Assembly (NCBI GenBank): GCA_014905635.1
Contig: JABVCE010000029.1
Span: 124,001-188,000 of the forward strand
Reading direction: 5' to 3'
DNA: 64,000 nt
From: Scenedesmus sp. PABB004
Lineage: Eukaryota
Of the stretch, positions 37,854-64,000 are shown one piece after another. Under the pieces are notes generated by a model. That model did no database searches. It saw nothing but the letters and a program-made list of their open reading frames with translations, and had not been told where the DNA came from. A program made the position numbers and the translations under genes. The stretch's first letter is position 1, and every line of letters starts with the position of its first letter.

Positions 37854-38440
37854 GCAGGCGCGGCTACGCGGTCACGCCGCCATCGCGCCACCCGTGGCTG
37901 CCGTGGGCGCGGTCGCGGCGACGCCCACGCGGCAGGAGTGGGGCAGAAGCGGGCGAGGGCGGACCTCTCGGCGCTGCCCGGCGCGCCGGCTGGCCCCGCG
38001 GCGCCCTGCGCAGCACGAGTGCGTCTATCGGGCTTGGGGCTAAGCTCCGGGCAGCACGGTCAGGTGCGTGGAGGGCGCTCGCCGCAGCGGGCTGGCCCGA
38101 GGAAGGCGGCTCCGGGCGGAGCGTGGGGGTGCTGCGCGGGTACGGCGAGGCGTCGTGGGCGTCTGTGGTGATGGCGGGACGCTGTGGGCGGCAGCGGGCG
38201 TCGCCGCGTGCTGCCAGCCGGGCGGGCGGCGAGCGCGCGATGCGGCGACCCGCCCGGCGAGCTGCCGGCGCCGTCGAGGGCCGCGCGGGGGCGCGCGAGA
38301 GGGACGCGGTGACCTCATTCTGCGAACGCACCGGCGCGCCGCGCGGATCGCTGCCCCCCGGCGCCGCGCCGGCGGCGGCACCGGGGCGCGACGCGCGCGC
38401 TGCTGGGCCGGCGGCGGCGGCGCAGGGGTGGGGCCAGGAC
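37592..38440 (-). repeat. Upstream region + signal-peptide exon + first intron, copy 1
   Basis: Near-identical to 53031-53890. Confidence 0.9.
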
Positions 38441-39071
38441 CTGTGCGTTTGCTGCACAGCAGGGCCCGGTACACTCCGGGAGGGTGAGCGGCTGGCCGGG
38501 TGCGCGAGGCGCTGGCTGCCAGCGAGGGTGGCGCGCAGCGCGGCGCACACCGCGCGGGAAATGTTCTGACCGCCAGATGGAGCGCGCGCCACGCCAGGTT
38601 ATTACCGTCCCGGCGCACAAGGGAAGGAAGGTATGCGGATGAGGAAGGAAGCATAGGTATTCGTTCATAAGTGTACGTGTACGTGGATTCGGGGCTGCCC
38701 CCACACACAAAGGTAAGCGCAAGCCAGGCGGCCTTACTTGCCCGCGCGATTATTCCAGTGCTCGCACGGCGGGCCCAGGCGCCAGCACGGTGTGGTGCCG
38801 CAGGCGCCCCAGACCAGGGCACGTACACAGCGTATTGTGTGCGTGCGATAGGCTCGAAGCAATAGACTTTGAAGGCCCCCTGCCGCCTCTGCCCCCCCCC
38901 CCCTGCTCACTGCATCTGGCGCCGCTGCCCCGCCTCGGTTTGCCGCCCGCCCCGGCCCAGCCGGCGCCGGTTCGTGTGTATAGACACAGTCAGTCGGCAG
39001 CAGCGCCGCTGGGGCCTCGACCCGGCCCCTGCGCCATGTGGTGACTGGTTGCGCAGCCCCCGCGCCCGCGC

Positions 39072-43956: not shown

Positions 43957-44133
43957 GCCAGTGCCGCTGCCCTGCCGCCTCGCCCCGATGCTGCGCCTTT
44001 GCCCCAGGCCCATGGGCCTGGCCAGCCGGCGCGTGCGTGTGCAAACACGCAGTCAGTCGCATCAGCGCCTCCGGGGGCGCGATCCGGCCGCTGCGCCATG
44101 CGGCGACTGGTTGCGCAGCCCCCGCGCCCGCGC

Positions 44134-47100
44134 TCACGCCTTGAGCGCCTTGGGCTCGCTGCCGGCAACCGTGCGCAGCAGCGAGCGCCACGGGCTGATC
44201 TGCACGCCCGCCGTGCCGCGCAGAAACATGCAGCGGACGGGGTTGGAGTCGGTGTGCACCTCGCCGTCGGGGAAGAACACGGCGGCGCAGTCGGGCGAGC
44301 GCGTGCAGTACGCCAGGCACTGCGTGGGCGACGCCTGCTCATACATGCCTTCCCCGTCTGTTGTGACGCCATTGACCAAGTCAACCTTGGCCATGCGCGT
44401 GCCCGCGGAGCCGCCGGCCTCATCGGCCCACCAGCTGAACCGGCCCGACCCCTGGTCGGCGGGCGCGGCGGACGCGCGGCGCGCCAGGCCCGAGCCGGGC
44501 ATGATCTTGAACGCAACCAGCGGCAGGCTGCGGGACGCACGGGGAGGGGGGTGGGGGGGGGGGGGGGGTCAGCGAGGGCGGCGCGTGCTGCCGCACTGCT
44601 GCGCCGCCGCCGCGCCGGCCGCGGCCTGGTGCCACGCGCGCGCGCGCGTGCGCGCTCACCCCTTGTCCTCGTAAATCGCCAACAGGCCGCCGGCGGCCAG
44701 GCGCAGCCAGCACTGCTTCTTGGAGTAGTCGTAAGAGACGTACTGGCAGTTTTCTGCTTGGTCAGTGCAGATCTTTACGCACTCGTCGAGATTGCCGTCC
44801 TTGGCAACAAGCTTCAGCCGCGGGTCGGCCTTGGGGTCGGCAGTCAGGAACCACTTGTCGTTGACGACCTGCGCGTAGCCCACCAGGCACTGGCTGGGCT
44901 GCACCGCGCCCTCGGGCGACGCGGAGCCGGCACGGAAGGGGTTGTTGGTGCCGCCGTAGTTGAAGGTGTACACGTTGGAGGGGCCGGCGCAGGCCACGCA
45001 CTTGGTGTCCCCGCCGTTGCGCCAGTCGGGGCCGTACGTGCCGCTGGGGCAGAACTTGCAGTCAACCTTGTTGATGTCCTCACTGCCCCAGCCGGCGGGG
45101 CAAACTGCGCGCGGCGGCAGCGGCGGCGGCGCGGCGCGCCTCAGTAGCTGCGCGGCGGCGGCGCCGGCGCCGCGGCGACCAGGGCGGCGGCCATGGCACG
45201 CTGCGAGCGCGTGCTGGTGGGCCGCTCACTGGAGCACTGGGTCGCGTCAGACGCGCCCACCACGCCCGGCAGGGTGGCACTGGACATGGGGCAGGGTTCG
45301 CACGGCATCTCAGCGCCTGAGTCAAACTTGCGCTCCTTGTCAGCATACGTGTCTGCGCAGCAGGCAGGGGCAGGCGCCGGTGCTCAGTGCCAGCCGCCAC
45401 GGCCTCGCCAGCGTGCGCGCGCGCGGGCGCCCGTGCGGGGACCCCCCCTCTCTCCCCAAACACACACACACACACACACGCACACAGCAGGCAGCGGCAC
45501 ACGCCCCTGCGCGCGCAGCAGCACTCACTCGCGCGGCAGGGGGCGACGACAAAGCCCTCGTCACCCTTGAAGCTGCCATAGCCAGCCTCTAGGAACCTGC
45601 AGCCGTCAGCGCTCATGCTGCTATCGCCCTCCGTGGTGGTGCCGTCGGCGCAGGCCTTGCACTTGTCGGCGGGTTCGGTCTTGCCGTCGTTCCAGGAGCC
45701 CTTGGCGCAGAGCGTGGCAATGGCGCCGGTCATGCCCCAGCCGGCGGGCACCAGGCAGTCCTCTGCGGAGGCGTAGCCGCCAGACTTCTGCGCCTCGCTC
45801 TTTGCGGTGGTGGTGCCCGCGGGGCAGGACCTGCGGGCAGGCGCGGGGCGGCGTGCGCGAGGCGCGCAGTCGTGGGCCTGACGCTCGCGGGGCGCCTGCG
45901 CGCCCGCAGCCGCACGTGCACACGCCGGCGCCGGCGCGGCGCAGCGCGCGGTGCGGCGGGCTCACGTGCAGGGCGTGGCGACGAGGCCGTAGGTCCTCTT
46001 AGCAGCACCATAGTTGTTGCCGTCGCACGTCAGGGCCTCAAACACGGGCTTGCCGGCGCCCGACACGGAGGCCTGCACCAGGCCCTGGCCGGGCTCAATG
46101 TCTGCGCGCGGTGCGGGGCAGGCGCGCGTCGGGTCGGGGCACGCGGGCGTGCCGCCGTGCAGCCGGCGCCCGCGCAGCACAGCGTGGTGCGGCCGGTGAG
46201 CCGGCGCGGAACTCACAGCACGAGGCGGAGGTGCGGCGGACCAGCTGCAGGGTCTCCTTCACCGTGCCGGCGATAGGGTCGTCCACCTCAACCTTGGACA
46301 GGGGCTCAACCGCCTCCGACTTGACGTCCGCGCCGCAGGGCGTGCAAGTGACGGTGGATGTCTCCTTGGTGGGGCGCACCCAGTCGGGCTGGTAGGATGT
46401 CTCGTCACACTCCTTGACCTCCGTGTTGTCAAAGCTGTAGCCCGGCGGCACCACTGCGCGGGCGCGGCGAGCGGCGGTGTGAGCGGCGGTGAGCGGCGCG
46501 GCGCGGATGCCTGCTGCTGCCGGGCAAGCCCCGCCGCGCCGCGCCGCGTCAGCGACCGTGCCCGCGCGCGGAGCCACGCACTGCAGCTGGTCTCGCTCTT
46601 GGCGCCAACGGAGCGCGTCCACATGCCGCCGTTGCACGCTTGCTTGTCGGCCTTGGGGCCGCCCGGGCAATAGGAGCTCTGAGGGCACAGCGTGGGGGTG
46701 TTGCCGTTGCTGCCATCAAGGTAGTAGCCGGGCAGAATCTCTGGGCGGGGAGGAGAGGCGAAGAGGGCAGAGGGCCAGGCACGGCATGAGGCGGGGCGGC
46801 ACAGCGCCGCGCAGGGCCTGGCAGCGGCTGTCTGCCTGCGCGTGCGCGCGCCGCCGGCTCACCCGTGCAGTCGGACGCAGTGCCCGGCTTGCTGGTCGTG
46901 CTGCCCACGGGGCACTTCTCGCACTGGGTGGCCTTGTCGTTGCTCGGGGACAGGTAGCCGTCACGCGTCTCACCCCTGGGGCAGCGCTGGGCGCCGGAGG
47001 AGGCCGTCCAGAAGTAACCGGGCTTGACGACTGTGGTGCGTGCGGTGGCGGAGAGGGGCGGGGAGGGCATGGGGGAGGGGGGGGGGGGGGGGGGTTGAAG

Positions 47101-48153
47101 AGTGCCGCAACGCGGCATCGAGCCATGCACCGAGCACCGCGCGCTGCGGCGGGGCCCAGTTGCCGCCGGCCGAGCGCGCCACTCACGACACACGCTCGAG
47201 CTCTTTCGGGGATCGGTGTTGCCGGGATCGGTCTCCAGGCCCTTGGGGCAGGGCGTGCAGGCCGCCTGGCGGCGGAGGCCGGGCGAGAAGGAGTCGGCGG
47301 GGCAGAGCGCGGCGCTGGGCCGCGCCTCCTTGTCGTTGCCCTTGATGTAATAGTAGCCGGCCGCGTTGACTGTGGGGCGGCGTGGGCGCGGCGCCGCGCG
47401 CGTCAGCGCGCGCGGAGTGCCGTGTGTGCCTGCGGCGTGTCGCGACAGGCGGCGGCGGCCGCCCCCCCCCCCCCCCCCCCCCCAATGCGCGCACCGCAGG
47501 CGGTGAACGAGCTGGCGCGGTCGCTGCGCGTGGTCAGGCCCTCGGTGGTTTTGTCCTTGTTCCAGTTGCACGACTTCTGCCCACCGGGCGCCAGCGACGC
47601 TGTCTCGCTGCCCCCGAGACTGCGCAGGCCGGCGTGCGGCGGCGGCCGAGCGGGTGAGCGCGCCGGCGCCGGCGCAGAGCGCGCGCGCGCTTGCACGGGC
47701 GCGCCCCTCCCAGCTCGGCGCACGCACCAGTAGTTGCCCTTGCCGCACGGCGAGCACAGTTCGTCGTCAGTCTTTTTGAGGAAGAAGCCCGGCTTGCAGC
47801 CGCAGCTGCCGTCGCGGGAGACGACGCGGTTGTTCACGCACTGCGTGCAGCGGAAGCCGCCGCCCGTCGCCGCCGGCACGCACGCGCCGTCCGCGCAGCC
47901 GTCGGGGCAGTTGGCCTGATCCTGCAGCAGGCGCCGTCCGGATCCTGGGCGCGCGCGGAGCGCGGGGGAGTGAGGCCTTTGCTCGCCCTCGCCTCGCCCG
48001 CCGCCCGGCCTGCCAGCCCGGTGCGCGCGCGCCCGCGCGCTGCCGCTCTTCACGTAGCGCGACGCACGCCTCACCTCCAGCCGCGGCGCCGCCGGCCAGG
48101 GCGAGCAGCGCGAGCAGGAGGAAGGCCCGCGAGGGGCGGGCTGGGCGCGCCAT
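44134..48153 (-). CDS. Secreted Cys-rich repeat / PAN-like protein, array member 3 (leader type B; closest paralogue of member 2)
   Basis: MARPARPSRAFLLLALLALAGGAAAG|GSGRRLLQDQANCPDGC. Same exon-intron layout as member 2, offset by ~5.07 kb. Confidence 0.82.
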
Positions 48154-49016
48154 CGCTGCGCGCGGCAGAGCACTCGAGGGGTCCGTCTGCGGCGTGGTGA
48201 GCTTTGTAGAGGTCCCAGGTGGCAGCGTAGGCGCTGCGCAGCGGTCCGGCGCTGCCCGCTGAGCGAGCACGCAGGCGGCCGCGGTCGCGCGCTCGTCGGC
48301 AGCTCGTTCGGGACGGCCGTATGAGCTCTGCGTGGCGTTGGCAGTGCGCCGACCGAGCGGGGAGGGCCGGGGTGCGTCCAGGGGGTTCACATGGATGGGG
48401 TGTGACCCGAAGGTGGGGGCGCGCCGCGCGCGCGCCTGCCCGCGGCCTGCGCCGCCTGGCGATGTGGTGCAACGAGGCAGCGGCGCCACGTGGAGCTGCC
48501 GATCTGCGGCGCCGCAGCAGCGGGCGGCGGCGCCGGGGCTGCGCGCGCGGCCAGGCCGCCGCGCGCACAGCCAGGCTGCCTGCGAGGGTCGCGCGCGCGG
48601 GCAGGGACTCGTGTCAGGGACTGTCACAAGACGAGAGGAACGTCGGGCGCAGTCGCGCAGAAGCAGAAAAAGGCGGACGCAGCACGCGGCCGCCGCCGTC
48701 AACGCCGCGACGCGCGGCTCTCTCACAGGCAGGGCGTCGTCGTGCCGCACGATCCAGAGGGGGGCGCCAAGCAAGCCCCAAATAGCTCCCACGCAGGAAC
48801 AAAACCCCGCCAGCACGCCCGCCGGCGACGCGTCGAGGGTTCCAGCGCCCTCGGTTATGCCGCCCGCCCGCCCGCCGCTGCTCACCCGTCCAGGGCACGG
48901 TGCGCGCTTGCTTTTGGTATCCCGGCAGTGCGGCAGTGCAACAACAGCGACAAGGACGCAGTAGGGGGGGGGGAGGCACCAATCTGTTATGCACCCACCC
49001 CCGCGCGCCGCCCCTC

Positions 49017-50133
49017 TCATGGCAGCGGGTTGTCGGCTTGGGAGGGGCGCGTGCGCACGAGCGTGCGCTGCGGGTTGCCCGCGGTCGACTGGCCCTTGAC
49101 GAGCGTGCAGGACGCCACCGCGCCGGACGCAACGCCGAAGCGCACCGCCGCGCACGCGGGCGCGAGCGTGCACGCGTCGAGGCATGCCGACACACCCCGG
49201 AACGTCGCCGGCTGGCCCTCGCTGACCGCCATCGGCACGCCGACCTGCCCCGGCGCGTCGTCGCGCCACCAGCTGAACACGCCGGTCCCGTAGTCGCTCG
49301 GCAGCGCGGCCGCCGCCGCCGCCAGGCCGGAGATGTCGGCGACCACCTTGAACGCGATCAGGCTCCTGCGCGCCCCGCAGCGGGCGGGCGGGCGGGCGGG
49401 CAGGCGTTGGCGCGTGCGCGCTCGGACGCCGCGCGGGGGCGGCCAGCCGGGGAAAGGGAAGAGGGGGAGGGGGGCAGCCGCGGCGCCGCGCCCCGCGCCG
49501 CGCGGCCCACCCGCTCGTGCCGGGCGCCGGCGCGCGGACGGCGCAGGTCTGGGTTGAGTAGTCGTACGTCAGAAACTGGCAGGACGCCCCGCACGCCGCC
49601 ACGCACGCGTCCAGGCTGGGCGGCGCGGCGCCGGCCGGCACTGCGGTCATGCCCGCGTCGTTGACCCTGTTCAAGAGCCAGTTGCCGTCAGTTATCTGCG
49701 CACGGCGCGGTGCGGCGCGGCGCGGCGCGGCGGGGCGGGGCGGGGCGGGGCGGGCTCGCGACCGCGCGCCCGGGGCCGCGGCGCGCGCCTGCCCGGCCGC
49801 CCACTGGCCCCCGCGCCGCGGCGGCAGGCGCGGCTGCAGGCGCGGCGGCGCGGCGGCGCGGCGCGCGCCTGTGCAAAGCCGGGCATGCACTGCCCCGACT
49901 CCGACGCGCCGGCGGGGGACACGGTGGGCGCGAGGTAAAAATTATTGCTGCCGCCCCAGGGGAAGCGGTAGAGCGCGGCGCCGGCGCGGCAGGCGATGCA
50001 GGCGAGGCCGGACGTGTCGGTGCCGTTCCCGGTCAGCCCCGGCCGCGTGTCGGGGCCGTAGGTGTTCTCGGGGCAGGGCAGGCACGTCGTGCTCGGCGAC
50101 TGCACGCCTGTGCCAGCCGGGCACGCTGCGCGC

Positions 50134-50185
<52 letters not shown>

Positions 50186-53100
50186 GGTGGCCGTCAGGCG
50201 CGGCGCGGGCAGCGCGCGCAGCGCGTGCGGCGCGTGCACGCCGGCCCAGGCCCCCCCTCTCTCCCCATCGCGCGCGCTCACAGTCGCACTCCGCGGCGCT
50301 GGTCGCGCCGTCGTCGCTGCTGGTGCGGCCGCCGGGGCAGGCCGTGCAGGGCTGGTCCGCAGAGGTGTCGATCACGCGACGGCTGTCGGCATACGTGCCT
50401 GCGCGGGCGCGGGCGGGGCGCGGCAGCGCTCGACCGTCAGCGCAGGCGGGCCGCAGCAGCGCGCGTAACGCCGCGCAGCGCCAGCTGCGCGCGCGCACCG
50501 GCGGCGCAGGGCGCGATGCTGCTGCGGATGGCGGCCGTGCTCGCGCCGCCGGCCGGGCGCACGTAGCCATAGCCCGCCACCACCCAGCGGCAGGCGTCCG
50601 CCGACGTGCCCCCGCTGGTTGCTGTCGGCGGGTCGCTCGTCGTGCCGTCGGGGCAGGCGGTGCACTGGCCCTGCGACCCGTCGCCCGGGTCGTTGTAGGT
50701 GCCCTGGGGGCACGGCATGGCCTGCCCGTTGAACAGGCCCCACCCGGGCGGCGTGTCGCAGGCCAGGGGCGACGTGAAGCCGCCGGTGGCCGGCTCGAAA
50801 AAGTAGCGCGCCGGGGCGGTGCCCGCGACGGCGAGCGTGGCGGTGGCCATGCCGGGCGGGCAGGAGGCGCAGGGGAGGGCGGTGAGCCCGTAGCTGTCCC
50901 CCGACACGCCGTAGCTGCCCTCCCCGCACGTCACCGCGCGCATCACGGGCTGCGCCGACCCCGGGTCGCTGTCCTGCAGCAGCCCCTGCCCCGCGCGGAT
51001 GTCTGCGGCGCCGCGGCGGCGCGATACGGCGCGAGCGCGTGGGTGCGTGCAGCGCGACGCGCGCAGGCGGACGTGCGCGGCGCGCGCCGGCCACGCGCGC
51101 TCCGCGCGGCCCCCGGCGGTGGCTCACAGCAGGAGGCCGAGCTGCGCGACACGAGCTTCACGCCGGTCGGCACGCGGTCGTCGGTGCTTGCGCTGTCAGC
51201 AAACAGGGCCACCGGGTCGGTGGCGCCCGCCATCACGCCCACGCCGCACGCCCTGCAGGCCGCGGCCTTGGGGTCGGCCGGCGCCAGCCAGTCGGGCTGG
51301 TACGTGCCCCAGTTGGCTGGGTCGCTCGCGTCGCCCGCGCCGGCGCGGTTGACGCACTGCGTGACCTCGCCGCCGGACGGCAGGAAGTGGCCGGGCGGCA
51401 CGACTGCGGCGGCGCGGGAGGGAGGGCGGGAGGGAGGGGGGGGGGGTCAGCGCGCCACGCCGCGCGGCGCGCGGCCAGGGGCGCCCAGGTGGTGGTGCCA
51501 GCGGGCAGGCAGGGCCCTGCGAGGCGGCGGCGCCACTCACGGCAGTCGGAGATCTTGATCGTGCCGCGCCCCCGCGTCCAGAGCCCGCGCGGGCACGCGA
51601 CGCGGCCGCCGCCCTGCTGCGCGGCGGGGGGCTGCGCGCCGCCGGCCAGCTGCGTGCCGGCGCAGTAGAAGCCCTGGCTGCACAGCCAGGGCGCCAGCGC
51701 CGCGGCCTGCCCCGCCGACGGCGGAGGGCCCCAGAAAAAGCCGGGCAGCAGCACTGCGGCGGCGGGGCGGCAGCGCGGTCGGCGCGGTCAGCGCCGTCGG
51801 CGAACCCCCCCCAGCGCGCCCGACAGCGCGCTCGGCAACGCCCGCAAGGCCTACCTGTGCAGTCGGCGGCCGTCGTGCTGCCCGCGCTGACGGTGTTCAC
51901 GCCCGACTGGCAGGGCGTGCACAGGATGGCCACGCTGCCCGGCGTCGCCCAGCCGTCCCGGAACTCGCCGCGGGGGCACCGAATGGCGGCGCGGCCCCAG
52001 TAGCGGCCGGGCGCGACCTCTGCGCGCGGTGGTGGTGGGGTGAGAGAGAGAGTGTGTGTGTGTGGGGGGGGGCGCCGTGCGCGCGCGCGGCCCGCCGGGC
52101 GCGGCGCGGCGCGCGCGCGCGCCGCCACTCACTGCACACGGCCACGCTCGTGCGGCCGGTCACGGGGTCGGACGGGTCGGTCCGCAGCCCCGCGGAGCAG
52201 GGCGTGCAGGCCGCCTGGCGGCGCAGCCCCGGGGAGAAGGTGTTGGCGGGGCAGAGCGCCGCGGTGTGGTTGGTGCCGGTGAGGCCGCCGGTGCCCACGG
52301 GCGTGGTGTCAGGGATGAAGTAATAGCCGGGCTGGTTCACTGCGGCCCGGGCGAGGGGGAGATGCGAGGCAGGTGAGACGGCAGGTGCTGCAGCGTGGCG
52401 CGGGGCGTGGCGTGCGCTGCGCAGCGCGCTCACCGCACTGCGCGCGCGCCGACGCGCGCGACCGCAGCGTCGTCAGGCCAAACGTCGACGGCGTGCCGGG
52501 CGGGGGCGGGGCCGTGTCGCCGTTGTAGTTGCAGGCGTACCGCCGCGACGCCGCCTGCGTGCCGCCGGGGCTGCGCGGCCGCGGCGGGGGCGGCGGCGGG
52601 CGGCGTGGGCCGCGCGACGCGCAACGCGGCGGGCCTGCGCCAGGCGCCGCTGCGCCCATCGCGCGCCCCGGCAGCGCTGCTCGGCGTGCCCCGGCAGCGC
52701 ACCAGTAGCTGCCGACTGGGCAGTCCTCGCAGGCGGATGAGCTGTTGAGGAAGCGGCCGGGCCGGCAGCCTGCGGACGGTCACGGCGGCGACGGCGGCGC
52801 AGCTCAGCACCCCCCTCCCCTGCTTTGGGCCCGGGCGGCAGAGCGTCCCGGGGCCGGTGCCGACGCTGGGCGGCGCCGCGCGCGCACCGCAGGTGCCGTC
52901 GACGGCGGGGGCGCGGCCGTTGAGGCAGTTCGTGCAGCGTATGATGCCGGTAAGGATGTCGAGCGCGCACGCGGCGGTCGCGCAGCCGTCTGGGCAGGTG
53001 ATGTTTTCCTGCAGCAGCCGCCTGCCCGCGCCTGCAGGAGGGGGCGGCGCAGCGGCGGCGGTGAGCGGGCGGCGGCTGGCGGCGCGGCCGCTCACCCCCA

Positions 53101-53293
53101 GCGCCCCGCCGCTGCTGCTGCCGTGCGGGCGCAGCGCAGCCCGGCTGCCTCGCCGCTCACCGCCTATCGACAGTCCTGCCGCCCCATCGCTCGACCAGCC
53201 GCCGCCAGCCGCCGCAGCAACGGCGCACGCGAGCAGGGCGAGCGCGAGCGCGCGCCGCGCCGCCGCGGCGCGCGCCGGCGCGAGGGCGGCCAT
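49017..53293 (-). CDS. Secreted Cys-rich repeat / PAN-like protein, array member 4 (leader type A)
   Basis: MAALAPARAAAARRALALALLACAVAAAAG|GAGRRLLQENITCPDGC; NQPGYYF, FSPGLRRQAACTPC, GTYQPDW, SYGLTALPC, GGFTSPLAC, CQFLTYDY, DYGTGVFSWW, CTLAPACAAV. Confidence 0.82.
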
Positions 53294-53890
53294 GCAGGCG
53301 CGGCTACGCGGTCACGCCGCCATCGCGCCACCCGTGGCTGCCGTGGGCGCGGTCGCGGCAACGCCCACGCGGCAGGAGTGGGGCAGAAGCGGGCGAGGGC
53401 GGACCTCTCGGCCCTGCCCGGCGCGCCGGCTGGCCCCGCGGCGCCCTGCGCAGCCCAGGTGCGTCTATCGGGCTTGGGGCTAAGCTCCGGGCAGCACGGT
53501 CAGGCGCGTGGAGGGCGCTCGCCGCAGCGGGCTGGCCCGAGGAAGGCGGCTCCGGGCGGAGCGTGGGGGTGCTGCGCGGGTACGGCGAGGCGTTGAGAGC
53601 CTCCTTGATGGTGGCGGGACGCTGTGGGCGGCAGCGGACGTCGCCGCGTGCTGCCAGGCGGGCGGGCGGCGAGCGCGCGATGCGGCGACCCGCCCGGCGA
53701 GCTGCCGGCGCCGTCGAGGGCCGCGCAGGGGCGCGCGTGAGGGACGCGGTGACCTATTGCGGCGAACGCACCGGCGCACCGCGCGGATCGCTGCCCCCCG
53801 GCGCCGCGCCGGCGGCGGCACCGGGGCGCGGTGCCCGCGCGCGCTGCGGGCGGGCCGCCGGCGGCGCAGGGGGTGCGGGGCCGGGCCTGG
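53031..53890 (-). repeat. Upstream region + signal-peptide exon + first intron, copy 2
   Basis: Near-identical to 37592-38440. Confidence 0.9.
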
Positions 53891-54573
53891 TGCGTGTGTA
53901 ATAGACGTTTCCTGGTGCACTGGTGGCGATGTGCGCGTGGCCGGGCGGCGGAAGGGCTGGGCTGGGAATGGCGGCAGCGCCGGCCTGGGGCTGAGGTGAG
54001 GTTTTACCGTCCGTCTGCGGCAAGGAACAATGATCAGCCTCTGCAAAAAAACGCGGACTCGGGGGAGTGGAGTGGAGCGTACGGGGCTCGAGGCTGCTGC
54101 TCCCGTGCACAAGGCAAGGCGCCACAGCGGGCCTTATTGTGCCCGCGCGCCGTTATTCACGCAGTTTGGCGCGGGGCCATGCGCAGCACCGCAGCGGGCG
54201 CGCCCAGCACGCCCCGCAGCAGCGCGCCCAGCGCGTTGCGTTGCGCTTGCTGCGCGGCGGCGCCGGGCGCGCCCCACACCAGGGGCACGTCCGCGTGCGT
54301 GCAATACAGACTCCAAGCACCGGCCTGTGATCAAACTGCCCCCCGCCGCCGCGGCCAGCCCGCGGCCCCGCCCGCCCCCGCTGCCCCGCCCGCCCCCCGC
54401 TGCGCCGGCTCAGTGCATACGTGTACAAACGCGCAGTGTGTGACCGGCAGCAGCGCTGCCCTGGGCCCGCGGCCCGGCCCATGTGCTGTGTCGGTAGTCG
54501 TAGAGTCGTTGCCGCGCAGCGCGCCCCGTGCCGTGGCGCAGTGGTTGCCCCCCCTTTCCCCCCTTGGATTGTC

Positions 54574-57500
54574 TCACGCGCTGGGGAGGCCCGCGGGCTC
54601 GGTGCCGGGGACCGAGCGAATCAGCGAGCGCCACGGGCTGTTCTGCACACCCTTTGTGCCCTTCAGGAACCTGCAGGTCGTGGTTGCGGCCAAGTCGCCA
54701 GTCGGGAAGTACACAGCCGCGCAGTCGGGCGACAGCGTGCAGTACTCCAGGCACGTCGAGGCCGCCACCGCCGTGGTAAGCTCGCCAGTCGTGCTGTTGG
54801 TCGCGACTCCCAGATCCGCGGTCGACATGGGCGTGCCCACCGGGACCCCGGTGGTGATGCTGGCGTTCCACCAGCTGAACGTGCCGGAGCCCTGGTCGGC
54901 GGGCCCGGACGAGCGGCGCGACAGGCCCGAGCCGGGCATGATCTTGAAGGCGATGTACGCAGAGCTGCGGGTGGTGCGTGGGGGGGGGGTTGTTAGCGGG
55001 GGAGCGGGGGAGCGGGGGAGCGGGGGAGCGGGGGCGGGGCCCGGGGCGGGGCCCGGGGCGGGGGGGGGGGGGGGCACAAATTGGCGCGGCCGCACACGCA
55101 CACGCACGCCCTGCGCGCTCACCCGCTGGTGAGCTTGCCCAGGTAGCACCCCAAACCCGAGGTGGCGTTGTAGTTGTAGGAGATGTACGAGCAGCCGCTG
55201 TCGACAGTGCAGGCGGCCACGCAGGCGGCGAGGTTTAAGGCGACGTCTGCCACCAAGGGGCCGTTGTCGAGGAACCACTTGCCGTTGACGACCTGCGCGT
55301 AGCCGACCATGCACTGGCTCGGCAGCGTCGAGCCGAGCGGCGACGCGGGGGCGCTGGCGTAGGGGTTGTTGGAGCCGCCCCAGCTAAAGGTGTACACGTT
55401 GGAGGGGCCGGCGCAGGCCACGCACGCGTAGTCGTTTGCGTCGCGCCAGTCGGGGCCGTACGTGCCGTTGCCGCACTTGCTTGTGCAGGTCAAGCCACTG
55501 CCGCCGTAGCCGGGGGGGCAGACTGCACGGCGGCGCGGGCTGCGTCAGCACGACGGCGGCGGCGGCGGCGGCGGCCGGCCAGCGGGCGCGCCGCGCGGCG
55601 TGCCCGAACGCGCGGGCGCCGCACTCACAAGTGCACTGGGAGTTGTCCACCGCGCCCACGACGTCCGGCAGGGTGACTTTGCCATCGGGGCAGTCAGTAC
55701 ACTCGTTTGCGTTGCCCGTGTTGAAGGTGCGCTCGGCGCCAAAGGTGTCTGCGCAGCAGGGGCGAGGGGGGGGGGGGGGCTCAGCGTCATCAGCCCCCTA
55801 TGCGCCGCGCACCCCGCACGGGCCCGCAGGCGCCCGTGCGGGGAGCCGCCGTCTAGCCCCCCAAACCGCTGGGCATCGGCGGGGCAGAGAGGGGGCCGGC
55901 GGCGCACTCACTCGCAGGGCAGAGAGAGATCAAGGTGCCATTGTAGCCGTACCCGGCCTCCAGGTAGCTGCAGTCAGCGGCACTCGTGCTGCCATTGCCT
56001 GCCGTGGTGGTGCCGTCGTCGCAGGAGACGCACTTGTCAAAGGTGCCGTTGTTCCAGGTGCCCTTGGCGCAGAGCGTAGCGATGCCGCCGGTCATGCCAT
56101 AGCCGGAGGGCAGGTTGCAGTCGTCCGCGGAGGCGTAGCCAAAGTCACCACTCCCCAGGGCCACGGTGGTGTTGGTGCCCTCGGGGCAGGACCTTGGGGG
56201 GGGGGGGGGGAGCAGACGCGGTGGGCCAGCAGTTCAAGAAGGGCGCGCGCGCGCGGGTGTGTGCGGCGCCTGCACGCGCGATTGCCGGGGCAGCGCAGCG
56301 CGCGGGGCTCACGTGCAGGGCGTGGCGACGAGGCCGTAGGTCCTGTTGGCAACACCGTAGTTTTTGCTAGTGCAGTTCACGGCCTTGAACACGGGCGTGC
56401 CCGCACGGGACTTGGAAGTCTGCACCAGGCCTTGGCCGCGCTCGATGTCTACGCAACGGGGGCGCGCGGGCGTTGGTCAGGAGGCGTGGCTGCCGCCGCG
56501 CAGCCCGTGCCCGCGCAGCACAATGTGACGCAGCGCGGCGAGCCAGCACGGCACTCACAGCACGAGGCGGAGGTGCGGCGAACAAACACAGAGCCGACCT
56601 CGCTGATCACGCTGCCAGTCGCGGAGAAGTTGGACAGGGGCTCGACCGCCTCCGACCCCACGCCGACGCCGCACAGCGTGCAGTTGACGGCATTGCGCGT
56701 CCAGTTGGACTGGAAGCCGCTGGTACACTTCACGATATCACTGTTTGTGCCGTCCCACGAGTAGCCCGGCGGCACCACTGCGCGGGCGCGGCGAGCGGCG
56801 GTGAGCGGCGCGGCGCGGGTGCCTCCTGCTGCCGGGCAAGCCCCGCCGCGCCGCGCCGCGTCAGCGACCATGCCCGCGCGCGGCGCCACGCACTGCAGTC
56901 GCTCTCGTTCTTGGCGCCGACGGAGCGCGTCCACATTGCCTTGGGGCACGCAGACTTGGTGGTGCCCGAGCAGTAGAAATTTTGAGGGCAGAGGTCGGTG
57001 CCGTCGTACCCAGCCACCCCTGGAGGGGGAGAAGAGGGGAGGGGGGGATGAGGCGGGCCTAGCAGCGGCGCCCTGCCTGCGCGCGCGCGGCGCCCATCTC
57101 ACCCGTGCAGTTAGACGACGACGTGGAGCCAGGCCCGCTGGTCGTCTGGCCAGCCGGGCACGGAGTGCACGCAGCGGCAGCAGCGTTAGGGGAGATGTAG
57201 GAGGTTTGATATTCGCCCTGGGGGCAGCGCTGGGCGCCGGAGGAGGCCGTCCAGAAGCGCCCGGGCGGGACCTCTGTGGCGTGCGGCGGAGAGAGGCGGG
57301 GAGGGCGCGGGGTCGGGGGCCGCGTAACAGACCCACGCACCGAGCACCGCGCGCTGCGGCGGCGCCGGGCGCTGCGCGCGCGCTGCCACTCACTGCACAC
57401 GGCCGCGCTCGTGCGGTCGGTCAAGACGGTCGGGTCGGTCTTCAGGCCCCTGGGGCAGGGCGTGCAGGCCGCCTGGCGGCGGAGGCCAGTCGAGAACGAG

Positions 57501-58302
57501 TTGTCGGGGCAGCGCGCGGCGGTGGGCGCGCCGCTCGAGCCCTTGATGTAGTAGTAGCCGGCCGCGTTGACTGCGGGGCGGGCAGGGGCGGGGGCGCGCG
57601 CGTCAGCGCGTGCAGAGTGCTGTCACATGGTGTGTGTGCGGCGTGTTGCGACAGCCTGGTACCAGCCGCGCCCGCGCTGCGCGCGCGTACCGCAGCCGGT
57701 GAACGAGGAGGTGCGCTGCCCGCGCGTGGTCAGGCCAGTGCCGCACGCCGTAATATTGGAGGCGCTCTGAGGGCCGCCAGGACTGCGCAGCAAGGCGTGT
57801 GCGGCCGGGTGGGCGCGCAGTGCGCAGCGGGACGGGCGGAGGGCGCACGGCGGGATCTGCGCGCCCAGCAATTCGGCGGCGCGCGCACCAGTAGGAGCCC
57901 GCGAGGCACGCCGTGCAGTTCACGTTGGTGTTAAGGCTGGTGAGGTAGGAGCCCTTCCGGCAGCCGCAGCTGCCGTCGCGCGCCACGACGCGGTTGCCGA
58001 GGCAGGCAGTGCAGCGCAGGGTGCCGTCGCTCCCGGGCACGCACGCGCCGTCATCGGTCGAGCAGCCGTCGGGGCAGCCCTGCAGCAGCCGCCGGCCGGA
58101 CCCTGCGCGCGGGGGGGCGAGCGGGAGTGAGCGGCATGCGGCCGGCGGGTTGCCGCCCCGCGGCCTGCCCGCTGCGCGCGGCCACGCGCTGCTGCCCCTC
58201 GCGTAGCACGGCTTGTCCCTCACCTCCAGCAGCGGCGCCGCCGGCCAGGGCGAGCAGCGCGAGCAGGAGGAAGGCCCGCGAGGGGCGGGCTGGGTGCGCC
58301 AT
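54574..58302 (-). CDS. Secreted Cys-rich repeat / PAN-like protein, array member 5 (leader type B, Ser/Thr/Asn-rich)
   Basis: MAHPARPSRAFLLLALLALAGGAAAG|GSGRRLLQGCPDGC; NAAGYYYIKG, FSTGLRRQAACTPCP, FVRRTSASCY, TYGLVATPC, CMVGYAQVVNGKWFL, DQGSGTFSWW, PWRSLIRS. Confidence 0.82.
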
Positions 58303-58754
58303 CGCTGCGCGCGGCAGAGCACTCGAGGGGTGCGTCCGCGGAGTGGGGGGCTCTGTGCAGGCCTCAGGGGGCAGCGGGGAGGCTGCACGGCGGTCGGCGC
58401 TCGCCGCGTCCGCCGCAAGCGGCGAGGAAGGACAGCGGTCGCCCCGGTCGGGAGGGTGGCGCAGCCTTGTTCGGGCCGCGTCAACGAGCTCTCTGGACCT
58501 CCAGGAGTGCCCCGCACGCGGCGTCGCGGGCTGGCGTGCGCCCGGCGAGCGGGGCCAACGGCGAACCGGCGACCTTCGCTGCCGACCTCTGCGAACCGGC
58601 GAGCAGCCCCAAACCTCCTCCGTCCGACCCCCACGCGCCCCCGCGCCCCGCGCTGCGAGCAGTGCGTGACCTGGGCAAGCGCTCCCGCGGCATCAGCGAC
58701 GCCACGGCCCCGCGCGCAGGCTGCTAGCTCGGGGCCGCCGTCTGAACACTAGCG

Positions 58755-59532
58755 CTGCACCGCACCGCACCGCCCGCACGGGCCGCGCGCGCCCTAGCCG
58801 GCATGGCCGTTGGCCGACGTGCCGCGTGCCCTGTCCGGCCGATCAGCGGCGCCGCGGCGGCGGCGGCGCAGCCAGCGCGCAGCGCGCGGCGCGCGAGCCG
58901 CGGCAGGGCTGGCAGCAAAAGCTCCGCAGCTCGGCTGGGTCAGACAGGCTGGCGGGGTTGATGTCACTGGGCCTATGGCGGTGTGGCCGAGGGCTGGGTT
59001 GCTGCTGCCCGCTCCGCGCCGCGCCCGTTCGCCGCTCGCTCGCTCGCTCGATTCGATCATCATCATCATCGCGGCCACCGGCAGCTCAACAGATTCTTTA
59101 CAGGGGGACGGGGGGCGGGGCAAGGACCCGCCTGTGGTGGTTATTAGCCGCGCGAATGTTATTAGAAAGGGCGCGGGCGGCGCGGCGGGATGCGGCGGCG
59201 CCGCGCCCGGCACGGGGGGGCGCGGCGCCGGCGGCCGCGCGCGGCACGCGTCGCCGCTCGACGGCGCGTGCAAATAGGGATCGCCACTTCTTGTTGGAAA
59301 CCCATCGAAACCCCCTCCGCCGCCCCCCTTTCACCTGCCAGTTCTTGCGCACCAAACCGCCATCTCCCGCCTCGCGGCAGGGAGTGGCATGTGCCGCGGC
59401 CCACAGCCCCCGCGCAGGCGGGCCGACCAGCGCGGCAAGTGTGCACATGAAATACGGCAGCGGCAGCGCCGCTGCCGGGCAGCTGCTGCGCCTGCACCAC
59501 CAACTCCGGCACCGGCGCGCACAGCAGCACAC
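58755..59532 (-). repeat. Duplicated 3' flank (copy behind member 6) with TGTAA poly(A) signal at 59098-59102
   Basis: Aligns with 61975-62730, e.g. acagattctttacagggggacggggggcggggcaaggacccgcctgtggtggttattagcc. Confidence 0.88.
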
Positions 59533-59783
59533 CACAACGGCGGCCCCTCGGGCTGCCGTTACCGGCGCGGCGGGTCGGTGTGCAGCACTGGAGCAGGCTC
59601 GGCGTTATCTGCTTGGTGATCTGCTGCAGGATCAGCTTGCTGTTCACTCTGTGGCAGATTATGTGATGGACCTCTGGAAGATGCGGGACACCGTCCTTAA
59701 GGGGCGCGGGACCAATGGGCGCGAGCCTGTGGTGTAACTATCTTTATCTTTATCTTTTTAACTATCTTGATCTTGATCTTGAT
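59533..59783 (+). mobile_element. Probable 5'-truncated non-LTR retrotransposon (LINE-like) insertion
   Basis: Absent from the paralogous flank near 62700 and lower in GC. Encodes ...LLGDLLQDQLAVHSVADYVMDLWKMRDTVLKG...* and ends in a (TCTTTA)/(TCTTGA) tandem tail. Flanked by cagcagcacac (59522-59532) and caccagcacac (59784-59794), a candidate target-site duplication with one mismatch. Confidence 0.65.
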
Positions 59784-59817
59784 CACCAGCACACGCGGCG
59801 CGCCGCGGCCGGCGCGC

Positions 59818-61973
59818 TCAAGGGCTGGTGGGGATGGCGACACTCGTCACCGTGGCTGCGTTCGTGCGCACGAGCGAGCGCCAGCTGCTGCTGATCTGCA
59901 ACGTGCCTTGCCGGAGCGTGCACGCCGTGACGCCGTTGACCCACGGGGTCGTCGTGGTGGTGGCCGAAAACCACACCGCGGCGCAGTCCGAGTTGTCGGT
60001 GCAGCTGTCGAGGCACGTCCCCACAAAGGTTGTGCTGGGGGTGCCCGTCGTAAAGGTGGTGATCGCCACGCCCACGTTGGCAGCCTCGGTGGTGCTGGCG
60101 CGCCACCAGCTGAACACGCCGGAGCCCTGGTCCTTGGGCAGCGCTGCGTGCAGGCTGCGCCGGCGGCTGGCGCTGGTGGGCATGATCTTGTAGGCGATGC
60201 GGTTAGTGCTGCGCAACGCGTGGCGGGGGGGGGGGGGGGGGGGTCAAGACGGGGCGGCGGCGAGACGCTGGCGGCTCGTACGTACGCGCGCAGCCCCTCC
60301 TCCCCCACCCCTCCAGGCAGGCAGGCGGGCGTGCGGCGCTCACTCGCTGATGCTGGTGTGCCTGAAGAAGAAGCAACGCGTCGTGCCCGCGGCGCCGGCA
60401 TAGTTGTAGCTGAGGAAGGCGCAGCTGGCGTCCGACGTGCACGCCCCCACGCAGGCTGTCAGGTTGGCGTGGCAGTCGGTGCCGGCCGCGGCGCACGCCG
60501 TCATGTTGGAGGGGCTGTTGTTGAGGTACCAGTTGGCGTCGACGACCTGCGCGTACGCGACGAAGCACTGGCTGCTGTCGGTCGCGCTGGGCGGCGCGAT
60601 GTTGGGGGGGCTGTAGGGGTTGTTGGTGCCGTTGTAGTAAAAGTTGTACACGTTGGTGTTGGTCGGGCACGCCGTGTCGTTCGCGGTGCGCCACAAGGGG
60701 CCAAACGCCGCCGCCGCGCTGGGGCCGCCGCACTGGGCGCACTGGTTGATGCCCGAGGGCGTGGCGCTCGTGGGCGTGCCCATGCCCTGGGGGCACACTG
60801 CGCACGGGCAGGCGGGCAACACGGTCAGCGGCAGCCACGCGCGCGGCCAGCCGGGCAGCAGGGGCCTGGCCTCCAGGCTCCTGCGGGCCTCTGCTGCGGG
60901 CAGCAGCCCGCGGGCGCGCGAGCGCGACCGGGTCGCAGCAGTGCCGCACCCAAGCACTCTGCCGCGCTGACAGCGCCGGTCGTGCCCAGCTGCCCGTTGA
61001 ACGTTGTGGTGCCGAAGGGGCAGGAGAAGCAGGTCACGTTGCTGGTCGAATACACACTCGTAGCGCCGCTCATGGTGAAGATGGTAGTGCTACCAGTGGT
61101 ATCTGCGTCCCTGTAGGTGCCTGCGGACCAGCGGCGCGCGCGCGGGCTCGGACACCGTGCGCATGCGCAGGCGCGGCGGCGCGTGCCCAGCCCGCGGCAC
61201 GCCCGGCGCGCGCGCGCGCGCCCCGCTGGGGCTCACCCGCGGAGCAGAGCCGGACGGTGTTGCTGACCGCCAGGAACTCGTAGCCCACGGAGAGGAGGTT
61301 GCAGGCGTCGCTGCTCGTGCTGCTGGACCCGGCCGTCGTGGTGCCGGTGGGGCAGGTCTTGCAGCGGTCGGCGGGCGCGGTGGTGCCGTCGTTCCAGGTG
61401 CCCTTGGCGCAGAGCGTGGCGATGGCGCCCGTCATGCCGCTGCCGGCGGGCACGGAGCACGCCTCGGGCGAGATGTAGCCGAAAGAGGAGCGCAGATCGG
61501 CGGAGGTGCTCGACGCGGTGCTCGTGCCGGCAGGGCAGCTGGTGCAGGGCTTGGCGTCAAGGCCGTAGGTCCTGTTGGGCGCGCCAAAGGTGTTGCCCGT
61601 GCAGTTGACCAGGCGGTACGTGGGCGTGCTGCTGCTGCCCGAGCCCGACGCCTGCACCAGACCCTGGCCGGCCTCGATGTCTGCGCAGCGGCGGCGCCGC
61701 GGCAGCGGGGGTCAGCGCGCGCGGCGGCGCTCGACGCGCGGCCCTGCTGTGCGCGCGCCGCGCCCCGCGGGGCGTGCGCGAGAGCGAGACACTCACAGCA
61801 CGAGGCGGCTGAGCGCGACACCAGCAGGACGGCGGACACGCCCGCGCCGGTGTCGTTGAGGGCCACCACGTTGATCGGCTCGGTCGGCTCCGAGTTGATG
61901 CCCGAGCCGCACGAGGTGCAGCTGCGCGTGTCGGTCCTGTCGAGCCAGTCGGTCTGGTACGTGCCCGCCGCGC
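59818..61973 (-). CDS. Array member 6: 3' half only (no signal peptide or N-terminal exons); headless module or pseudogene
   Basis: Intact exons GTYQTDW..LLVSRSAASCY|IEAGQG..TYGLDAKPC..CAKGTWNDG | ... NNPYSP..CFVAYAQVVDANWYL..CAFLSYNY | ..DQGSGVFSWW..SSWRSLVRT. The upstream sequence is the 3' flank of member 7. Confidence 0.65.
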
Positions 61974-61974
61974 C

Positions 61975-62730
61975 TGCACCCGCCCGCGCCGCGCGCGTCC
62001 TAGCCGGCATGACATTGCGACACGGAGCCGTCCGGCCGCGCCGATCAGCGGCGCCGCGGCAGCGGCGCAGCGCACGCGCAGCGCGCGAGCGCCGGCGTGC
62101 AAGGGCTAGCCGCTAAAGCTGCGCGGCTGGGCGGGGTCAGACAGGCTGGCGGGGTTGATGCCACCCGGGCCTATATGGTGGTGTGGGCCGAGGGCGGGGT
62201 TGCTGCTGCTGCTGCCCGCACCGCGCCGCGCCGCGCCCGTTCGCCGATCGCTCTAGTCGAGATCATCATCGACATCGCGGCCACCGGCAGCTCAACAACA
62301 GATTCTTTACAGGGGGACGGGGGGCGGGGCAAGGACCCGCCTGTGGTGGTTATTAGCCCGCGCGGATGTTATTAGAAAGGGCGCGGGCGGCGCGGCGGGC
62401 TGCGGCGGCGCCGCGCCCGGCGAGGGGCGCGGCGCCGGCGGCGCGTGCAAATAGGGATCGCCACTTCTTGCTGGAAACCCATCGAAAACCCCTCCGCCGC
62501 CCCCATTGCACCTGCCAGTTCTTGCGCACCAAACCGCCATCTCCCGCCTCACGGCAGGGAGTGGCCTGTGCCGCGGCCCACAGCCCCCGCGCAGGCGGGC
62601 CGACCAGCGCGGCAAGTGTGCACATGAAATACGGCAGCGCCGCTGCCGGGCAGCTGCTGCGCCTGCACCACCAACTCCGGCACCGGCACCGGCGCGCACA
62701 CACAGCGGCGCCACCACACCAGCACACGCG
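61975..62730 (-). repeat. Duplicated 3' flank (copy behind member 7) with TGTAA poly(A) signal at 62307-62311
   Basis: Aligns with 58755-59532. Confidence 0.88.
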
Positions 62731-62750
62731 ACGCGCTGCGGCCGGCGCGC

Positions 62751-64000
62751 TCACGGGGTGGTGGGGATGGCGACGCTCGTCACCGCGGCTGCGTTCGTGC
62801 GCACGAGCGAGCGCCAGCTGCTGGTGATGTCGAACGTGCCGCGCCGCAGCGTGCACCCATTGACGCGATCCGACCACGCGGCGGCCGAGCCGGTCGTCGT
62901 AAACGACACCGCGGCACAGTCCGAGTTGTCGGTGCAGCTGTCGAGGCACGACCCCACAAAGGCTGCGCTGGGGCTGCCCGTCGTCAAGGTGCTGATCACC
63001 ACGCCCACGTTGGCAGCCTCGGTGGTGCTGGCGCGCCACCAGCTGAACACGCCGGAGCCCTGGTCCTTGGGCAGCGCTGCCTGCAGGCTGCGCCGCCGGC
63101 TGGCGCTGGTGGGCATGATCTTGTAGGCGATGCGGTTGACGCTGCGCAACGCGCGGCGGGGGGAGGGGCGGGGTGGTCAGGGCGGGGCGGCGGCGCGATG
63201 CTGGCGGCTCGCGCGCGTACGCGCGCAGCCCCCCCCCCCCCCCCCCCCCCCCACCCCACCCCCAGGCCCCCAGGCGGGCGAGTGAGCCGCTCACTCGGTG
63301 GTGCTGCCGTGCGTGAAGTAGAAGCAGCGCTGCGTGGTGCCGGCCGCGTAGTTGTAGCTGAGGAAAGCGCAGTTGCCGGTGCACGCCCCCGCGCAGGCCG
63401 TGAGGTTGGCGTGGCAGGACTCGGTGCCGGCCGCGCCGCACGCCGCCATGCCGGTCGTGGCGTTGGTGCCGAGGAACCAGTTGGCGTCCACGACCTGCGC
63501 GAACGCGACAAAGCACTGGCTGCTGTCGGTCGCCAAGGCCGGCGCGACGTTTGGGGGGCTGTAGGGGTTGTTGGTGCCGTTGAAGTAAAAGTTGTACACG
63601 TTGGTGTTGGTCGGGCACGCGCGGCACGCCGTGTCGTTTGCGGGGCGCCACGAGGGGCCAAACGTCGCCGCCGTGCTGCCGCAGGCGGTGCACACGTTGG
63701 AGAGCGAGGGCGCGCCGCTCGAGGGCGTGCCCATGCCCTGGGGGCACACTGCGGGCGGGCGGGCGGGCGGGCGGGCGGGCGACGTGGTCAGCGGCAGCCA
63801 CGCGCGCGGCCAGCCGGGCGGCAGCCGGGCCCCTGCGGGCCTCGCAGATGCTGCGGGCAGCCCGTCGCGCGTCAGTGCCGCACCTGAGCACTCGGCCAGG
63901 CTGATGGCGCCGGTCGTGCCCAGCTGCGTGTTGAACGTCGTGCCGCCGCCCGGGCAGGTGGTGCAGTTCATGCTGGCAGACGGCGTCCTCGAGGCGCCGC
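62751..64000 (-). CDS. Array member 7 (3' exons; 5' part lies beyond the window)
   Basis: CTTCPGGGTT..AEC | VCPQGMG..NNPYSP..CFVAFAQVVDANWFL..CAFLSYNY | NRIAYKIMPTSASRRRSLQ..DQGSGVFSWW..SSWRSLVRT. Closest to member 6. Confidence 0.8.

Follow-up and report, generated by a model that had tools for sequence, protein, structure and literature searches.

A headless gene tail in a green-algal tandem array that may be a relic of partial duplication still exchanging sequence with its neighbours

5'-truncated tandem duplicates, or unprocessed pseudogenes, occur in gene arrays that evolve in concert. In the IgM/IgD system, alternative 3' modules are chosen from one primary transcript, while pilS, the vlsE cassettes and the chicken pseudo-V genes act as silent donors for gene conversion. 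Here we describe a locus that resembles each of these in part: member 6 (m6), a 5'-truncated paralogue with five exons at 59818-61973 on the minus strand of a 64,000-nucleotide (nt) stretch of green-algal DNA (contig JABVCE010000029.1, positions 124,001 to 188,000; hereafter the window, whose own coordinates are used throughout). m6 is the tail of a secreted cysteine-rich protein with PAN-like C-terminal modules, and it lacks a promoter, signal-peptide and leader exons and a natural splice acceptor. The reading that we favour, with moderate confidence, is that m6 is a non-autonomous relic tail, probably decapitated late, copied as part of a two-tail block and still exchanging sequence with its neighbours.

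The truncation is evident from the exon with which m6 opens. In the complete paralogues m2, m3, m4 and m5 of the same array, this exon (exon 7 in m5) opens (M/L)VPPG...C...YQPDW and follows a phase-1 intron, an intron phase that the first-pass annotation had reported for m2, m3 and m5 and that we checked in all four. The m6 counterpart opens ...GAAGTYQTDW, and self-BLAST, alignment and comparison with paralogues bear out the earlier claim that m6 starts mid-exon within the 3' flank of member 7 (m7) and has no leader exons. From 61973 on the minus strand the frame reads ...AGAGAAGTYQTDWLDRTDTRSC... and stays open to a TGA at 59820-59818, with GT..AG at all four introns, so that the exons are stop-free and the splice sites intact, as had been noted. 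Also as noted, m6 keeps its own TGTAA (59102-59098), the poly(A) signal of green algae; the minus strand of 58700-64000 contains just one more, that of m7 (62311-62307). The parts of m6 are as follows.

61797-61973, minus strand: exon E1', 5'-truncated, missing 16-30 codons from the start of the family exon and with them its first cysteine
61237-61680, minus strand: exon E2', with CxxCPxG repeats, uninterrupted by the intron found here in m2, m3 and m5
60950-61120, minus strand: exon E3'
60344-60797, minus strand: exon E4', a cysteine-rich repeat and the first PAN-like module
59818-60208, minus strand: exon E5', the second PAN-like module, with stop TGA at 59820-59818
59098-59817, minus strand: 3' untranslated region (UTR), with TGTAA at 59102-59098
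58774-59097, minus strand: 3' flank F', homologous to 61979-62306
59547-59784, no strand assigned: insertion of 238 nt in the UTR, 54% GC, specific to m6, with no second copy in the window

The intron that splits exon E2 lies at 56193-56312 in m5, with equivalents in m2 and m3, and is absent from m6 (61540-61545) and apparently from m4; intron presence therefore varies among paralogues of one array. The 238-nt insertion is absent from m7, overlaps the lowest-GC stretch of the window and lies between imperfect GTGTGCTG repeats. When read on the plus strand, it looks like the terminal part of an open reading frame (ORF) with short tandem repeats after it, and it may be a 5'-truncated fragment of a mobile element. 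A Pfam search with its peptide gave no match, nor did an Rfam search over 54000-64000.

We then located the point at which m6 departs from its relatives. Self-BLAST placed a break in homology at 61979, corresponding to 58773, and together with global alignment it showed that the 3' flank of m7 (61979-62306) is homologous to that of m6 (58774-59097) up to the junction. m6 begins mid-exon directly after this flank, and the breakpoint (61979-61973) falls at the first cysteine of exon 7. Homology to the adjacent gene thus stops at a non-homologous breakpoint inside the gene, as in an unprocessed truncated duplicate. A processed (retro-)pseudogene was ruled out by the four introns at family positions and the tandem location. 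The m7 side of the junction comprises the following.

61974-62306, minus strand: 3' flank F of m7, ending in GTGCAG at the junction and holding ATG 62010-62008 and ATG 62015-62013
62307-62750, minus strand: 3' UTR of m7, with TGTAA at 62311-62307
62751-64000, minus strand: visible part of m7, with E5 at 63141-62751, E4 at 63748-63295 and E3 from 63884 to the window end

Both the GTGCAG (61979-61974) and the ATG at 62010-62008, which is in frame with m6, are duplicated-flank sequence, with counterparts in the m6 flank near 58760-58805. This bears on the notion that m6 is an autonomous truncated gene with its own start in the 330 bp past the m7 poly(A) signal. Translation from ATG 62010 would give a protein of 557 amino acids (aa) in a frame open to 59818, but the ATG is part of the duplicated flank, an out-of-frame ATG (62015-62013) lies 5 nt upstream, and the product would have no signal peptide although its domains are disulfide-rich and of secreted type. 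We consider such a gene very improbable. We think it equally implausible that the meeting of flank and mid-exon is a false join made during assembly. The array is GC-rich and repetitive, but the copies differ by 11-17% on either side of the junction, and a second copy with equal exon content lies upstream in the same assembly.

That second copy came to light through a public gene model. The best match to a profile of the E5 module was P0001, a 5,039-aa protein in NCBI nr that is the public gene model of the same assembly. It holds m6 (519 consecutive residues), m5 (777) and the visible part of m7 (319) letter for letter, and the 519-residue match means that the m6 exon boundaries are not those of our analysis alone. 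P0001 threads seven array members, in the order mA, mB, m7, m6, m5, m4 and m3. mA (residues 1-917) is complete, with a signal peptide. mB begins at residue 918, opens CTSCGSG and, like m6, starts inside exon 7. m7 is preceded by a 21-residue linker and has the whole of exon 7 (VPPGYY...), with no signal-peptide or leader exons. Because P0001 takes in the leader exons of m5, m4 and m3 and none ahead of m7, m7 is probably headless too, that is, without the six leader exons and with no upstream exons of its own. Our reading of the DNA extends to position 64000, with the upstream exons of m7 outside the window. On the evidence of the gene model, the locus would thus consist of one complete head (mA) followed by four tails: that of mA itself, mB, m7 and m6. 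As judged from their sequences, mB and m6 are two near-identical headless tails (hereafter B-type) that alternate with the mA tail and m7.

The joins within P0001 are taken as prediction artefacts and not as evidence of splicing. That between m7 and m6 is the following.

61922-62754, minus strand: 'intron' of 833 nt in P0001, whose donor CC/GTGAGC overlaps the m7 stop

Its acceptor, the AG at 61923-61922, falls within E1' and has a score of -4.2 bits. m6 is in turn joined to m5 through the m5 ATG exon, which places a signal peptide mid-protein. Over 44158-64000 and beyond, the bridges are long 'introns' that begin at or near stop codons, with signal peptides mid-protein, and P0001 is very likely an over-merged annotation. 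The same kind of merging seems to have produced P0002 (KAF8066436.1; Scenedesmus sp. PABB004) and P0003. We also considered GTGAGC at the m7 stop as a true donor into 61973 and rejected it, since the donor is of phase 2 and the acceptor of phase 1.

A tblastn search with the spliced product of m6 located the remaining members. Intron-rich paralogues with TGTAA close to the 3' end lie in tandem on the minus strand from about 34 kb to the window end; their 3' limits are near 34197 (m1), 39102 (m2), 44158 (m3), 49050 (m4), 54601 (m5), 59818 (m6) and 62754 (m7, interrupted by the window end), and a plus-strand copy (m0) lies at 16386-19683. From m2 to m6 the distance between successive stops is about 4.9-5.6 kb, but from m6 to m7 it is only 2.9 kb. 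The complete model of m5 comprises 12 exons that encode 801 aa between ATG 58302 and a stop at 54574, with a signal-peptide-like N-terminus. Phase 1 is the commonest intron phase in the family (8 of the 11 introns of m5). G+C content across the window is 70-84%.

To compare the tails, mA, m7, mB and m6 were aligned with the PABB004 orthologue as the outgroup, and amino-acid identity was taken exon by exon (for E1, over the shared part).

mB and m6: E1 1.00, E2 0.98, E3 0.98, E4 0.97, E5 0.80
m7 and m6: E1 1.00, E2 0.94, E3 0.67, E4 0.73, E5 0.76
mA and m7: E1 0.88, E2 0.82, E3 0.79, E4 0.79, E5 0.91

m7 equals the B type (mB and m6) in E1 and E2, the E5 of mB is a hybrid, and mA and m7 agree almost throughout the last 57 or so aligned residues of E5. 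Identity between the outgroup and each of the four tails is 0.56-0.60. Exon-wise identities this discordant require gene conversion or recombination among the tails.

The same pattern is seen within the m6-m7 pair. Nucleotide identity is 0.74 in partial E3, 0.87 in E4, 0.89 in E5, 0.88 and 0.85 in the introns, 0.94 in the 3' UTR and 0.83 in the flank. The differences are clustered (index of dispersion 3.5, against a 99% limit of 1.36) and leave two uninterrupted matches, 82 nt long in E5' and 73 nt long in the UTR, the longer of which is unexpected by permutation (P = 0.0006). Mosaic divergence of this kind indicates gene conversion, and it upholds the fallback offered in the first-pass annotation, namely that m6 is a partial duplicate or a gene-conversion partner. 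In the distal 3' UTRs (59100-59505 and 62300-62676) m6 and m7 are about 97% identical, above the exons (87-89%) and introns (85-88%), which could reflect either a recent conversion tract or a constrained UTR element. Complete members of the array behave likewise. m2 and m3 (38957-41981 and 44022-47068) are 89.6% identical overall, and their coding divergence is bimodal, a clear conversion mosaic between two complete genes; the proportion of synonymous differences is 0.249 in one codon half and 0.031 in the other (P = 1e-8), making this pair even more mosaic than m6 and m7. The non-adjacent m1 and m4 share an 889-bp 5' stretch (37570-38448 and 53009-53895) that is 93.8% identical, the remainder being far more diverged, which is a further sign of conversion or segmental copying.

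Shared tracts among copies, namely the 82- and 73-nt runs and the discordant exons, are what a conversion donor would leave. It may be that the headless tails have been retained by selection as silent donors because, by conversion, they supply diversity to the tail of the expressed gene. m6 has neither promoter nor head, its frame is kept, its divergence is mosaic with long identical runs, and conversion is strong in the m2-m3 control as well. Yet tandem arrays convert anyway, without any need for selection, and transfer could run in either direction. The cysteine losses that these tails carry would harm a recipient, and we have no evidence of an advantage from variation in this protein. We hold selected retention to be unlikely.

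Whether m6 is, or was until recently, under constraint was approached through its divergence from m7, with m2-m3 as the control. Differences at the three codon positions number 54/49/43 (314 codons) for m6-m7 and 45/34/58 (435 codons) for m2-m3. The first-pass annotation had suggested that upstream exons of m7 might splice to either of two 3' halves and had named the ratio of nonsynonymous to synonymous substitution rates (dN/dS) between m6 and m7 as a check. The ratio speaks against it: the NG86 estimate is 1.05 (bootstrap 0.73-1.61), against 0.67 for m2-m3, and the maximum-likelihood (ML) omega (F3x4) is 0.39, against 0.24. We calibrated the latter with simulations based on the substitution spectrum of nearby non-coding DNA. 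Under full neutrality the median omega was 0.51 (5-95%: 0.35-0.71), and acceptance of half of all replacements in both lineages gave 0.24, the value of the m2-m3 control. One neutral lineage combined with one half-constrained, family-typical lineage gave 0.38, matching m6-m7, whereas two half-constrained lineages reached 0.39 in only 3% of 120 replicates (P = 0.03). The calibrated omega thus fits one unconstrained copy. We discarded the formal ML rejection of omega = 1 (2dlnL = 16) as evidence of constraint because the same test exceeded 3.84 in 75% of 24 neutral replicates; it is unreliable at this G+C content of third codon positions.

The loss of conserved residues points the same way. In E4', one cysteine of a CxxC motif has been lost with 9 nt deleted in frame between 60673 and 60672. 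This cysteine is missing from both B-type tails and present in the other six of six aligned window paralogues, in the outgroup, in mA and in m7; mB carries a further cysteine-to-arginine change. The record of m6 is therefore a mixed one: no stops or frameshifts, one invariant cysteine gone, an omega that fits one neutral lineage, and indels in frame.

The stop-free frame is weak evidence for function. In neutral simulations the probability of no stop in 519 codons was 0.35, 0.25, 0.18 and 0.13 at 4, 6, 7.5 and 9% divergence per lineage. At this GC content long ORFs are common in any case: an antisense frame is open for 471 aa, and every one of the six frames contains stop-to-stop stretches of 100-470 aa (58700-62400).

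Several observations weigh against a relic. The m6 frame is intact over 519 codons, and all eight splice dinucleotides are kept. Between m6 and m7, each of the 7 indels in coding sequence has a length divisible by three, against 8 of the 20 in non-coding DNA (Fisher P = 0.007), and exons carry 2.7-fold fewer indels per nucleotide (7 in 940 nt, compared with 20 in 1,005 nt). All five indels assigned to the B lineage with the outgroup are in frame. Relative-rate tests against window outgroups, which have little power with paralogues this distant, showed no excess in m6 (13 vs 11 nt; 3 vs 3 aa), and derived amino-acid changes, at 9 in B and 6 in A/C, showed no excess in B. The 3' UTRs of m6 and m7 (0.94-0.97) are better conserved than the exons. 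The headlessness of m7, finally, is an inference from a gene model and not from DNA that we read. Taken together, the in-frame indels, the lack of a rate excess and the conservation of the UTR make it unlikely that the tail has long been both headless and neutral, and these signs are compatible with a relic only if decapitation was late or conversion refreshes the copy. Conversely, the calibrated omega, the loss of cysteines and the absence of an acceptor are hard to reconcile with family-typical constraint on m6 today.

For m6 to be expressed as an alternative 3' end, it would need an acceptor. The first-pass annotation had proposed that GTGCAG at the junction gives in-frame entry in phase 1, and in position and phase this is correct: the candidate AG at 61975-61974 leads into 61973 in frame. 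As an acceptor it fails to convince. The pyrimidine fraction of the 27 nt upstream is 0.37, against 0.56-0.96 in 17 real acceptors of m5-m7. Its position weight matrix score is 1.7 bits, exceeded by 14 of the 17 real sites (leave-one-out), and 58 of the 420 AGs in 54-64 kb equal or exceed it. By neither measure does the 5' end of m6 hold a usable acceptor, and the hexamer is plain flank sequence. Nor is in-frame entry at 61973 special, since phase 1 is the default of the family: the exon-6 and E3 donors are of phase 1, as are the E1 and E2 donors if m7 is built like m6. A better-scoring AG at 62118 (9.0 bits) was rejected because a stop precedes E1' in all three frames. Use of m6 would also require read-through of the m7 TGTAA, and a spliced product would, judging by its predicted sequence, be without two conserved cysteines. 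The proposal that m7 splices to two 3' halves thus finds a probably headless m7, a weak acceptor and a poly(A) signal in the way.

A broader version would have the transcript start at the mA head, pass one to three poly(A) sites and use a phase-1 donor to pick a tail, so that the PAN-like tips differ. Its appeal lies in the arrangement, one head followed by three tails with intact ORFs, each with a stop, and TGTAA in both m6 and m7; the in-frame phase-1 entry, in a family with mostly phase-1 introns, and the wholly in-frame B-lineage indels suit it as well. Against this, m6 has no natural acceptor, the candidate AG being purine-flanked and low-scoring, its product would lack the first cysteine of exon 7 and one of the invariant CxxC, omega fits one unconstrained copy, and the m7 TGTAA is intact. 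In addition, the orthologous array of Scenedesmus sp. PABB004, as represented by its merged model P0002, shows no headless tail: the mA orthologue is followed at once by a second, complete gene. We rate an alternative 3' cassette as quite improbable. It rests, as does the donor reading, on the same signal of frame preservation. The two can be merged into a single unit of one head and four tails, all with intact ORFs and stops of their own, that would vary its PAN-like tips by read-through combined with alternative splicing and polyadenylation, or by conversion from the headless tails into the expressed one; if so, the exclusively in-frame indels of the B lineage would be the mark of selection acting on cassettes that are never autonomous genes. 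We regard this merged form as unlikely too, and return to the relic tail as the better account.

We next considered what kind of protein m6 derives from. Pfam gave only sub-threshold matches for the m6 product: E4' to PAN_1 (PF00024; 17.8 bits, gathering cut-off 21.4), E5' to PAN_3 (PF08277; 14.6 bits, cut-off 21.1), E2' to Ephrin_rec_like (PF07699; 23.0 bits, cut-off 23.1), where CxxCP.G motifs are visible, and TNFR_c6 (21 bits, cut-off 29.4). An AlphaFold (AF2) model of E5', built on an alignment of eight window paralogues, had a mean predicted local distance difference test (pLDDT) score of 68.8 and a beta-beta-beta-helix-beta-beta order; we took the PAN fold to be a helix packed on a five-stranded sheet and held by disulfides. 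Foldseek of this model against the PDB returned nothing at E <= 0.001. The best VIA-align Z of 4.2 is too low to decide, and many of the top rows are PAN/apple structures. PAN/apple is named in the titles of four (2msx, 7qox, 4a5v and 1hky), and others (HGF N domain, kallikrein, MIC4 and HAI-1) we take to be PAN/apple. Atlas leads for E5' point to PAN clusters at 0.77. To call the C-terminus of m6 a PAN-like tip is reasonable on this structural modelling, though formally unproven.

Searches for homologous proteins with single sequences of E2' and E5' gave no match at E <= 0.001. The profile of the E5 module, in contrast to these single sequences, matched 167 proteins at E <= 0.001 among 1.84 billion representatives, including proteins of 800-900 aa with a signal peptide and the same module order. 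A metagenome scan with E4' matched one locus (L001) at 29% identity. A literature search on partial gene duplication and alternative last exons or polyadenylation listed only papers that, from the listing, appeared unrelated, and the passages of PMC11839794 consulted contain nothing on this protein family.

The order of events, which we infer, could be as follows. A B-type gene would have been translated for most of its divergence, and its head would then have been lost or not copied, leaving the non-homologous junction between a 3' flank and the first cysteine codon of exon 7. Tandem duplication of a block that began in intron 6 of the upstream tail and extended across the B tail would have produced the order mA-mB-m7-m6; this starting point explains why m7 has the whole of exon 7 and yet no head. 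Gene conversion since then would have patched the copies together. As far as its sequence allows us to infer, m6 is most likely not translated today and is a young relic that still swaps sequence.

If m6 is a relic only, three things follow. The annotation is corrected, in that the public 5,039-aa protein represents seven genes or gene tails fused by improbable introns; the locus illustrates in detail what partial duplication and conversion do to a family of secreted algal proteins that evolves fast; and open frames and uncalibrated likelihood tests of omega = 1 mislead at 75-80% GC. If the tails were used, a green alga would offer a rare example of an extracellular, recognition-type protein diversified through 3' cassettes.

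As to its protein, m6 is closest to green-algal secreted proteins of about 800-900 aa with ephrin-receptor-like or TNFR-like cysteine repeats and two C-terminal PAN/apple-like modules (for example KAF8066436.1, P0014, P0049, P0053 and P0060). The order of motifs and modules in its five exons is that of their C-terminal part, but m6 lacks the signal peptide and the N-terminal repeats. As to its genetics, m6 shares with silent conversion donors such as pilS, the vlsE cassettes and the chicken pseudo-V genes that promoterless, 5'-truncated copies stand beside an expressed gene and exchange sequence; it differs in that nothing here points to programmed conversion, a dedicated expression site or a benefit from variation. 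With IgM/IgD it shares tandem 3' modules, each with its own stop and poly(A) signal, behind one 5' set and with compatible phases. It differs in its unconvincing acceptor and in a module that lacks conserved cysteines. The nearest likeness is to 5'-truncated tandem duplicates or unprocessed pseudogenes in concertedly evolving arrays. Like these, m6 keeps its introns, lies beside its parent, has no promoter or first exons, begins at a non-homologous junction and shows patchy identity from conversion. Unlike these, it has kept its frame, its splice sites and in-frame indels over substantial divergence, and the truncated unit was itself duplicated again, giving one head and then three tails.

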